A stretch of 64,000 bases of DNA from Eledone cirrhosa (taxonomy: Eukaryota). This document shows, piece by piece, positions 26,601-29,440 of this stretch. The position numbers and the translations under genes are program-made. Numbering within the stretch: the first letter of the stretch is position 1; each line of letters begins with the position of its first letter. The DNA lies in assembly GCA_964016885.1 (NCBI GenBank), contig OZ024752.1:39494001-39558000 (forward strand), written 5' to 3'. The notes under the pieces are model-generated. The model ran no database searches. It had not been told where the DNA came from and saw nothing but the letters and a program-made list of their open reading frames with translations.

Positions 26601-29440
26601 TATAAAGGACGTAAAATAAGAAAATATTTTTTAAAAAAAATTTTAAAAAATTTTTTTACTTACTTAAATTTTCACTCCAACTAATTAGTTTCTGCAATGG
26701 GATAAAGACAGTTACGTAATCCAACTGTCGAGAATTCATTGCGTCATCAGGGAGTCTATTCTCAGTTAAGTCTCCAGGCAATGCGCGGACACTGGCGGCT
26801 CATATAAAAATAATAATAATTCGGTAGATCGAACAGCTTGCGAGGACTGGATTCTATGTACCGAAATTCTCACTGCTTCAAGTCAAATGGCCGATTCTAA
26901 AGAATCAATCACGTGACACAGAGGCTAGTTAGAAGGAATGGGATGGTAAGATGACTGACGCCTACTAACACCCCAAAAAAAATTTTTTTAGAAGTGGTTT
27001 TGACAAGTTTGCTCGACAAATCAGTGATTTGGAGATAAATATAGATAATTTAATATATCAACTAACATAAGCGCACAGATGCACGCCCATGCCAGCAAAT
27101 ACACAGGTTATGTCATAGTACCTAGGTGGTTCAATGCAGGAGAATGCAGAACAATAATATAAAGGACGTAAAATAAGAAAATATTTTTTAAAAAAAATTT
27201 TAAAAAATTTTTTTACTTACTTAAATTTTCACTCCAACTAATTAGTTTCTGCAATGGGATAAAGACAGTTACGTAATCCAACTGTCGAGAATTCATTGCG
27301 TCATCAGGGAGTCTATTCTCAGTTAAGTCTCCAGGCAATGCGCGGACACTGGCGGCTCATATAAAAATAATAATAATTCGGTAGATCGAACAGCTTGCGA
27401 GGACTGGATTCTATGTACCGAAATTCTCACTGCTTCAAGTCAAATGGCCGATTCTAAAGAATCAATCACGTGACACAGAGGCTAGTTAGAAGGAATGGGA
27501 TGGTAAGATGACTGACGCCTACTAACACCCCAAAAAAAATTTTTTTAGAAGTGGTTTTGACAAGTTTGCTCGACAAATCAGTGATTTGGAGATAAATATA
27601 GATAATTTAATATATCAACTAACATAAGCGCACAGATGCACGCCCATGCCAGCAAATACACAGGTTATGTCATAGTACCTAGGTGGTTCAATGCAGGAGA
27701 ATGCAGAACAATAATATAAAGGACGTAAAATAAGAAAATATTTTTTAAAAAAAATTTTAAAAAATTTTTTTACTTACTTAAATTTTCACTCCAACTAATT
27801 AGTTTCTGCAATGGGATAAAGACAGTTACGTAATCCAACTGTCGAGAATTCATTGCGTCATCAGGGAGTCTATTCTCAGTTAAGTCTCCAGGCAATGCGC
27901 GGACACTGGCGGCTCATATAAAAATAATAATAATTCGGTAGATCGAACAGCTTGCGAGGACTGGATTCTATGTACCGAAATTCTCACTGCTTCAAGTCAA
28001 ATGGCCGATTCTAAAGAATCAATCACGTGACACAGAGGCTAGTTAGAAGGAATGGGATGGTAAGATGACTGACGCCTACTAACACCCCAAAAAAAATTTT
28101 TTTAGAAGTGGTTTTGACAAGTTTGCTCGACAAATCAGTGATTTGGAGATAAATATAGATAATTTAATATATCAACTAACATAAGCGCACAGATGCACGC
28201 CCATGCCAGCAAATACACAGGTTATGTCATAGTACCTAGGTGGTTCAATGCAGGAGAATGCAGAACAATAATATAAAGGACGTAAAATAAGAAAATATTT
28301 TTTAAAAATATTAAATTATCTATATTTATCTCCAAATCACTGATTTGTCGAGCAAACTTGTCAAAACCACTTCTAAAAAAATTTTTTTTGGGGTGTTAGT
28401 AGGCGTCAGTCATCTTACCATCCCATTCCTTCTAACTAGCCTCTGTGTCACGTGATTGATTCTTTAGAATCGGCCATTTGACTTGAAGCAGTGAGAATTT
28501 CGGTACATAGAATCCAGTCCTCGCAAGCTGTTCGATCTACCGAATTATTATTATTTTTATATGAGCCGCCAGTGTCCGCGCATTGCCTGGAGACTTAACT
28601 GAGAATAGACTCCCTGATGACGCAATGAATTCTCGACAGTTGGATTACGTAACTGTCTTTATCCCATTGCAGAAACTAATTAGTTGGAGTGAAAATTTAA
28701 GTAAGTAAAAAAATTTTTTAAAATTTTTTTTAAAAAATATTTTCTTATTTTACGTCCTTTATATTATTGTTCTGCATTCTCCTGCATTGAACCACCTAGG
28801 TACTATGACATAACCTGTGTATTTGCTGGCATGGGCGTGCATCTGTGCGCTTATGTTAGTTGATATATTAAATTATCTATATTTATCTCCAAATCACTGA
28901 TTTGTCGAGCAAACTTGTCAAAACCACTTCTAAAAAAATTTTTTTTGGGGTGTTAGTAGGCGTCAGTCATCTTACCATCCCATTCCTTCTAACTAGCCTC
29001 TGTGTCACGTGATTGATTCTTTAGAATCGGCCATTTGACTTGAAGCAGTGAGAATTTCGGTACATAGAATCCAGTCCTCGCAAGCTGTTCGATCTACCGA
29101 ATTATTATTATTTTTATATGAGCCGCCAGTGTCCGCGCATTGCCTGGAGACTTAACTGAGAATAGACTCCCTGATGACGCAATGAATTCTCGACAGTTGG
29201 ATTACGTAACTGTCTTTATCCCATTGCAGAAACTAATTAGTTGGAGTGAAAATTTAAGTAAGTAAAAAAAATTTTTTTAAATTTTTTTTTAAAAATATTT
29301 TCTTATTTTACGTCCTTTATATTATTGTTCTGCATTCTCCTGCATTGAACCACCTAGGTACTATGACATAACCTGTGTATTTGCTGGCATGGGCGTGCAT
29401 CTGTGCGCTTATGTTAGTTGATATATTAAATTATCTATAT
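26601..29440. mobile_element. 557-bp HHR-containing monomer array: 3 tandem copies plus a partial (26601-28308), then 2 copies in inverted orientation (28308-29440)
   Basis: Marker ggacgtaaaat at 26607, 27164, 27721 and 28278 (period 557); copies look identical apart from homopolymer lengths; (TA)n flanks; no ORF of 60 aa or more in the track. Confidence 0.9.
28609..28690 (+). ncRNA. Type I hammerhead ribozyme of the 557-bp monomer (also 29166-29247 +; 26674-26755, 27231-27312, 27788-27869 -)
   Basis: actcc CTGATGA c-gcaatg...gacagtt-ggattacgt-aactgtc...cattgc-a GAAA ctaattag TT ggagt; palindromic stem III; GUU triplet. Confidence 0.85.

Follow-up and report, generated by a model that had tools for sequence, protein, structure and literature searches.

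Metazoan retrozymes have been described as tandem repeats of type I hammerhead ribozymes which are expressed as RNA circles, and Penelope-like elements (PLEs) were proposed as their mobilisers (PMC7229834). Their consensus lengths range from 51 to 972 bp, and a relationship to the pseudo-LTRs (pLTRs) of PLEs was reported in a vertebrate survey (10.64898/2026.07.22.740005). In the accessible parts of these two reports, the mobilisation of animal retrozymes by PLEs via RNA circles is a hypothesis derived from shared ribozymes, co-occurrence and pLTR phylogeny, and its mechanism is unresolved. Coding PLEs are found with inverted arms and a tail at only one of the two ends (PMC3846280; 10.1101/2021.04.23.441226), i.e. 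the one-ended tail is already known qualitatively for these elements. For the anole PLE, two internal start sites of reverse transcription with a tail between them were determined in vitro; with the same PLE, the reaction did not require cleavage by the hammerhead, and the principal substrate was unprocessed RNA (PMC11167929).

The window, i.e. the whole stretch of 64,000 nucleotides from Eledone cirrhosa that was analysed, contains an array of five near-identical units of 557 bp, three in tandem and two inverted. The forward block (26600/26601-28308) comprises 1708-1709 nt, corresponding to 3 x 557 + 37 nt, and its units are without mismatch. The inverted block (28308/28309-29440) comprises two units and about 18 nt; its last unit shows two substitutions and one inserted base, all within an A/T homopolymer tract. 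Accordingly, the block coordinates, the unit alignment and the short reading frames agree with the sequence-only reading, which had described five non-coding units in two blocks of different register (three units plus ~37 nt and two units plus ~18 nt), with both outer ends running into (TA)n, as is seen directly in the window sequence. Monomer positions are numbered from +1 = 28686, the first base after the GUU at the predicted cut. The array comprises the following features:

26234..26604, left target flank, a (TA)/(CA)n microsatellite
26600..28308, minus strand, arm 1, 3.07 tandem units with the hammerhead sense on the minus strand
3' end of arm 1, minus strand, site A at monomer position 79, ...CCTTTATAT; the 5' end is at position 42
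28308..29440, plus strand, arm 2, 2.03 units
ends of arm 2, plus strand, position 180 for the 5' end and site B at monomer position 197 for the 3' end, ...ATCTATAT
29436..29500, right target flank, (TA)n-rich

The arms are joined head-to-head with an overlap of 1 nt. Arm 1 has its hammerheads on the minus strand and arm 2 on the plus strand, and both RNA-sense 3' ends point outward. Since both outer ends lie within (TA)n, a target-site duplication, which in non-LTR retrozymes exceeds 4 bp where present, is not readable at the mapped loci. Among the six frames of the unit, the longest stop-free one has 52 codons, which marks the unit as non-coding; neither LTR, PBS nor PPT was seen in it, and the single RT and GIY-YIG reading frame of an autonomous PLE is absent from it. 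Its GC content is low (36%).

The array is built of tandem units that are non-coding and contain a single type I hammerhead, and in this it resembles the metazoan non-LTR retrozymes of coral, mussel and axolotl (PMC7229834). The low GC content, the coexistence with PLEs, a predicted self-paired circle and the length, which lies within the range of 51-972 bp, are likewise shared (PMC7229834; 10.64898/2026.07.22.740005), so that the earlier impression of an unusually long unit was not upheld. While RNA circles were shown for metazoan retrozymes, they are a prediction for the family described here; conversely, the two-armed insertions, fixed paired 3' ends and (TA)n targeting found here are not described in the accessible parts of the same two reports. 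A plant-type LTR retrozyme, with a type III hammerhead in its LTRs and a unique internal region, was considered and set aside, as the unit is of type I and purely tandem.

The hammerheads were located as follows:

28609..28690, plus strand, predicted type I hammerhead of arm 2, based on the window sequence and on compensatory changes in stems I and II
28609-28613 with 28686-28690, stem I of this hammerhead; 28614-28620, core CUGAUGA; 28622-28627 with 28665-28670, stem II
remaining parts of the same hammerhead, GAAA and a palindromic stem III of 3 bp
29166..29247, plus strand, second hammerhead copy of arm 2
27788..27869, 27231..27312 and 26674..26755, minus strand, hammerhead copies of arm 1

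Five CUGAUGA...GAAA cores are present, at 26750, 27307 and 27864 on the minus strand and at 28614 and 29171 on the plus strand. The GUU is found at 28683-28685, with the cut predicted after 28685. One well-formed hammerhead per unit had been claimed; the five cores stand, but the attribute has to be qualified. Stem III has only 3 bp and lies inside the palindrome ACUAAUUAGU, and the long stem II carries a C-A mismatch at its base, which is kept in all three families F1-F3 and may lower ribozyme activity. The minimum-energy fold of the isolated region did not show the full hammerhead, and the window gave no hammerhead match in Rfam at the gathering threshold, only chance matches at E<=5. Since Rfam returned no hammerhead, the fold was tested by covariation on an alignment (A4) of nine sequences from three related families, the rows of which represent about three lineages. 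Paired cells amounted to 100% for stem I, 98% for stem II and 100% for stem III, compared to 30-54% for slid controls, with the tested structure being favoured over the slid versions by its derivation from the window copy. Stems I and II each showed two pairs changed on both sides, which suggests at the level of sequence that cleavage matters. For an inner stem within stem II, A4 gave no cross-family support (55.6% paired). Hammerheads with a short palindromic stem III are reported to cleave as dimers (PMC7761336; PMC7229834). Dimers of frog retrozymes showed no cleavage in eight of nine tested cases (10.64898/2026.07.22.740005).

A genome search with the 557-nt unit yielded 624 first-look candidates; the 40 that were scored showed 97-100% identity over full units. 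Such near-identical copies at many loci support the view of a young non-coding retrozyme. For a first set, 36 regions were fetched, which together with the window correspond to 36 loci; L045 and L046 are one array, and L047, likely a duplicate of L033, was counted for the ends and omitted from the haplotype test. Fifty-seven of the 58 arms in these loci end either at +79 (site A, 26 arms) or at +195-197 (site B, 31 arms), and the 58 mapped 5' ends are scattered. Each of 21 of the 22 two-armed loci combines one A with one B end; the sole exception, L063, has a B end and a 43-nt arm ending at +475. Since the query had ended at site B, the test was repeated with a mid-unit probe. All 20 new loci obtained with it, all on C1 and tied at 100% identity, were taken as a second set. 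Seventeen of them are two-armed, and all 17 show one A end and one end at +185-197; three of the A ends map at +71, caused by a substitution at +72 that halts the exact extension. At L274 the B end joins non-TA sequence, and at L279 the arms are separated by 236 nt.

Taking both sets together, 56 dispersed genomic copies were mapped, and 38 of 39 two-armed loci comprise one A and one B end, with neither A+A nor B+B found. Under random pairing this would be expected with p ~6e-5 for 17 pairs and p ~4e-11 for 38 pairs. In these 38 loci, an inverted 5' arm is combined with a tail on one end only, as would result from two start sites of reverse transcription. This outer-end pairing is the Penelope 'tail' signature, here with a length of 118 nt; it supports both the two priming events and the mobilisation of Penelope type that had been suggested for the locus. 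The 'permuted' multimers had to be revised, as the inner (5') ends are scattered and the RNA-sense 3' ends lie at two fixed sites, paired one of each. Accordingly, a search for further arrays with permuted starts was successful at 55 other loci, but only for the inner ends. The monomer contains four TATAT sites (79, 183, 197 and 434), of which essentially two are used; target homology alone therefore does not explain the choice of site.

Altogether, we consider it probable that the array is a young non-coding hammerhead retrozyme which was written by a PLE into (TA)n from two fixed sites of an RNA, most likely a circle. Head-to-head inverted arms, a one-ended extension, AT-rich targets and a pair of internal starts that follow the hammerhead cut are shared with PLEs, while the lack of an ORF, the tail of 118 nt instead of 30-40 nt and arms consisting of multi-unit arrays differ from them (PMC3846280; 10.1101/2021.04.23.441226; PMC11167929). 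Moreover, TATAT at the retrozyme ends is homologous to the target, in contrast to the anole PLE with its non-homologous start sites (PMC11167929). In the literature that was searched, the one-ended tail in a retrozyme, the pairing count and the bulged hairpin described below were not found reported; subscription papers, Repbase and supplements may hold the family.

The insertion anatomy, being that of a PLE, would also fit a unit that is a mere pLTR of a coding PLE, and tandem repeats could be a DNA satellite or an assembly artefact. We regard these explanations as very improbable. With seven query proteins from three families, none of the 36 regions showed a PLE protein match next to a 5' end, and the nearest matches, at 97 and 310 nt, were on the far side of the 3' (TA)n. 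At each of the 56 loci, the 5' end is connected to the other arm or to a TA-rich or unique flank. Since no coding sequence was found attached to the unit, it is read as a non-LTR retrozyme. The growth of a satellite does not fit with fixed ends at dispersed loci. The suspicion of an artefact is countered by the same unit at the 55 other inspected loci and by short-read contigs of run X1, which contain the unit and its head-to-tail junction, X1 possibly being the assembly's own sample. Runs X4-X6, from other organism codes, showed a depth of ~2-4 over the unit, apart from matches in the A/T tract, which was not taken to indicate that other species carry it.

The region around the two sites contains further elements:

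28765..28882, plus strand, 118-nt stretch between sites A and B (Penelope-type 'tail')
28769..28792, plus strand, bulged hairpin GUUC-UGCA...UGCA-UU-GAAC, 5 nt after site A
28817..28868, plus strand, long hairpin with cross-family compensatory changes, its end lying 14 nt ahead of site B
28446..28461, plus strand, TGTCACGTGATTGATT, kept in F1-F3, candidate internal promoter element

A terminal copy of the tail (~29323-29440) forms the end of arm 2 and is missing from that of arm 1. In each of F1-F5, a hairpin of the form GUUC...UUGAAC, bulged by 2 nt, directly follows site A; in the case of 28769..28792 we infer it to be a candidate binding site for the PLE protein. Compared to shuffled sequences, this hairpin reached a z of -1.0 at the window and of -1.0 to -2.1 individually, and its stem showed no two-sided change within F1-F3. 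The long hairpin is more stable than all shuffles (z -5.0, 0/200), and in F1-F4 site B follows it by ~11-14 nt. As a circle, the window unit is predicted to be self-paired (z -3.2, 12 shuffles). Since the antisense strand also folds better than shuffles (z -2.4 for the window unit, and F4 even better in antisense; 12 shuffles each), circular folding is not decisive. The element TGTCACGTGATTGATT is one which we take to be E-box-like. GTTCRANNC is a B-box-like consensus; an antisense match to it was set aside, as it is absent from F2 and falls on the hairpin (by eye). A GTAAGT resembling a 5' splice site is found at 28701-28706 (plus strand), with GTAAGT or AG-GTAAA(T/G) equivalents in F2-F5 (L096, L110, L220, L229) and in L083, L094 and L040; in the related families inspected it follows the predicted hammerhead cut by 15-25 nt. 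If it acts as a donor, both start sites would be lost on splicing, leaving the unspliced RNA alone copyable.

Diverged copies in the flanks led to four further families, namely F2 (533 nt), F3 (525 nt), F4 (484 nt) and F5 (~470-490 nt). F2 and F3 share 65-81% identity with the window unit in the aligned parts, while F4 and F5, which were found from two leads of the partner search described below, share motifs only and showed no adjoining ORFs. Among 30 loci of F3, inspected by eye, 17 were A+B, three had a second arm ending in unique sequence and ten were single-armed; accordingly, 17 of 20 two-armed loci were A+B and none was B+B. Thirty loci of F4, also inspected by eye and with the first six picked by a junction-spanning query, comprised 22 A+B, one ambiguous and seven single-armed loci (22 of 23 two-armed loci A+B). 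F2 is older and noisier: most of its two-armed loci were A+B, several were ambiguous, and L074 combined one B arm with an arm running ~14-20 nt beyond B into non-TA sequence. In F5 the A/B pairing was seen in the readable pairs; L247, with two A ends lying tail-to-tail, likely represents two insertions. At L280, L288 and L290, and at L225 in F4, the arms stop at the same monomer position and form a perfect palindromic junction, which at L290 lies at the 8-bp palindrome ACCTAGGT.

Regarding the template, 112 unit pieces of >=300 nt from 34 loci were compared, with homopolymer tracts masked and L045-L047 omitted. Units differed by 0.12% in substitutions within the same arm, by 0.16% across the two arms of one locus and by 0.51% when taken from different loci; none of 1000 label shuffles gave a distance as low. 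As far as substitutions can tell, these haplotypes favour a monomer or circle as template. The 18 loci with >=3 units contained 20 variants that were fixed throughout, 3 partial and 20 single ones. At L062 (3274-8075), two unit types alternate strictly within each arm, and the type at the end is the same for the two arms. This is the pattern that a dimer circle would give, making L062 a candidate dimer-circle product. The mixed units of L049 and L066 are not explained by a monomer circle. Seven fixed variants were each confined to a single locus in the first set, three of which (21G, 386T and 521A) recurred in the second set. This weakens the argument, and the shared haplotypes may partly reflect donor lineages. 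The variant 386T, present in the mixed array L284 and in all of L064, is a candidate for a haplotype with a single-unit source.

These data bear on a further explanation, in which the same two-site priming by a PLE takes place on an uncut linear read-through transcript of a uniform array, with later unequal exchange at the DNA level lengthening and homogenising the copies. Given uniform donors, the fixed ends, seamless junctions and shared haplotypes would be explained equally well, and the mixed loci L049 and L066 as well as the recurrence of apparently private variants fit this explanation, as does the preference of the PLE for uncleaved RNA in vitro (PMC11167929). Furthermore, a long array on C4 (C4:291982388-292007554; L270, L045 and L046), which comprises at least 46 units and ends at site A, shows higher-order repeats of 4-6 units, demonstrating that DNA-level expansion occurs too. 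However, on a linear template a daughter cannot exceed the length of its donor and a new mutation reaches one unit only, in contrast to the 20 fixed versus 3 partial variants. Every examined unit of the long array has 113A>G, a variant found in no other compared locus; the array was therefore not the donor of those loci. Together with the compensatory changes in stems I and II, this leads us to regard the read-through transcript as unlikely, though to be taken seriously.

Single-haplotype arrays could also arise without ligation, either if the reverse transcriptase jumped from the 5' to the 3' end of a cleaved linear monomer (pseudo-rolling), or if two RNAs of the same lineage served as templates, one per arm; mixed loci such as L049 would fit as well. 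Jumps of non-LTR reverse transcriptases usually add or lose bases, while 172 of 173 cleavage-site junctions were identical, and none of the 58 mapped 5' ends lies at +1. The divergence across arms is also close to that within arms (0.16% and 0.12%). Both variants are considered improbable. Among the 39 arm junctions, 26 were clean with overlaps of 0-8 nt and 13 had gaps or extra bases of 1-236 nt; an overlap of >=3 nt was found in 8 of the 26 clean junctions, compared to 6% expected.

For the circular template, which we prefer, the following course can be envisaged. A tandem array would be transcribed by read-through, and the hammerheads would cleave the transcript, probably as dimers via the palindromic stem III. 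Ligation would then give a 557-nt circle and sometimes a dimer circle. The bulged hairpin would be bound by a PLE protein that is probably dimeric and probably belongs to the Hydra clade; this protein would cut both strands of (TA)n, with one cDNA started from site A and the other from site B via TATAT homology. Each reverse transcriptase would circle the template for 0.04-6.4 turns, and a microhomology of 0-8 nt would finally allow the two cDNA ends to anneal, each priming second-strand synthesis on the other and resulting in the inverted junction. The specific combination of a PLE dimer on one circular ribozyme RNA, two obligate starts marked by structure and rolling cDNAs with mutual priming is advanced tentatively, as a possibility about which we are somewhat doubtful. 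If true, a dimer mechanism with two starts would account for both the inverted repeats and the 'tail' in every PLE insertion; it would likewise provide genomic evidence that animal retrozyme circles, dimer circles included, are real templates of reverse transcription. The family adds a mechanistic fingerprint, namely retrozyme insertions that obey the two-start-site rule of PLEs almost without exception, with arms from one haplotype, and gives unusually clean evidence on the insertion of such elements. With near-identical copies and intact PLE frames of 750-890 codons in the same genome, the circular template and the origin of the PLE inverted repeats become directly testable in vitro.

PLE sequences are abundant in this genome (16,566-59,881 first-look candidates, with long open frames). 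Two coding families, P2 and P3, are 39% identical and comprise a YRDD RT-like motif as well as a CxC-x5-C linker before a GIY-YIG-like end. This linker is described for the Hydra clade, all families of which insert into (TA)n (10.1101/2021.04.23.441226); the placement of P2 and P3 in this clade is by motif alone. Against Pfam, the full-length ORFs of P2 and P3 gave no match at E<=0.01, and the C-terminus of P2 gave a weak GIY-YIG match (E 0.0019). After the hammerhead, P2 ends at ~+10-24 and +89-93 and P3 at ~+50 and ~+140, with one end of each kind in the readable head-to-head pairs (six of P2, five of P3), and both contain a bulged hairpin ACUC...UUGAGU after site A. The retrozymes thus resemble Hydra-clade PLEs in (TA)n insertion and hammerheads, with the linker, the A/B pairing and the hairpin shape present in P2 and P3 (10.1101/2021.04.23.441226). 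Since the tails of P2 and P3 are ~70 and ~90 nt long and their hairpin is ACUC/GAGU and not GUUC/GAAC, neither is shown as the partner. A blastn comparison of three retrozyme families with 30 + 40 PLE-centred loci from three protein searches matched only further retrozyme copies; most PLE families of the genome lie outside these 70 loci. As no sequence-similar PLE was found among them, the link between unit and PLE is architectural. In this, the family differs from the vertebrate survey, in which a pLTR relationship was reported (10.64898/2026.07.22.740005), the 70 loci showing no pLTR sequence homology. It also differs from non-autonomous Chlamys PLEs such as MRC1, which resemble their autonomous partners at the 3' end; most Chlamys elements are without hammerheads (10.1101/2021.04.23.441226).

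The window itself contains PLE fragments (GIY-YIG, RT) of three coding families at 30471-31274 (plus) and at 32556-33077, 33184-33741 and 35825-37357 (minus), the Pfam matches of which are weak. The family of 30471-31274 is very young, with 96-99% protein identity across 150 scored copies, and at L253 it comprises RT and GIY-YIG in one frame. Other hammerhead-bearing PLE ends in (TA)n were observed at 24040-24700, 25880-26080, 29480-29800, 57709, 60400-60720 and 62087-62250, including head-to-head pairs of one short and one long end (24233/24503 and 60547/60622).

Apart from these elements, the window comprises an array of ~16.6 kb (3845-20446) with a CT/CA-rich unit of 19 bp in 893 copies (TRF), a GC skew of -0.98 and an N gap near 18500. 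A frame of 323 codons at 55791-56762 (minus) showed NHL/beta-propeller matches in Pfam and is probably a host gene exon. At 20965-21574, two tandem copies of 304 nt with 98% identity lie inside one frame (RPDG...WDAT), which we take to be the C-terminus of a non-LTR retrotransposon endonuclease.
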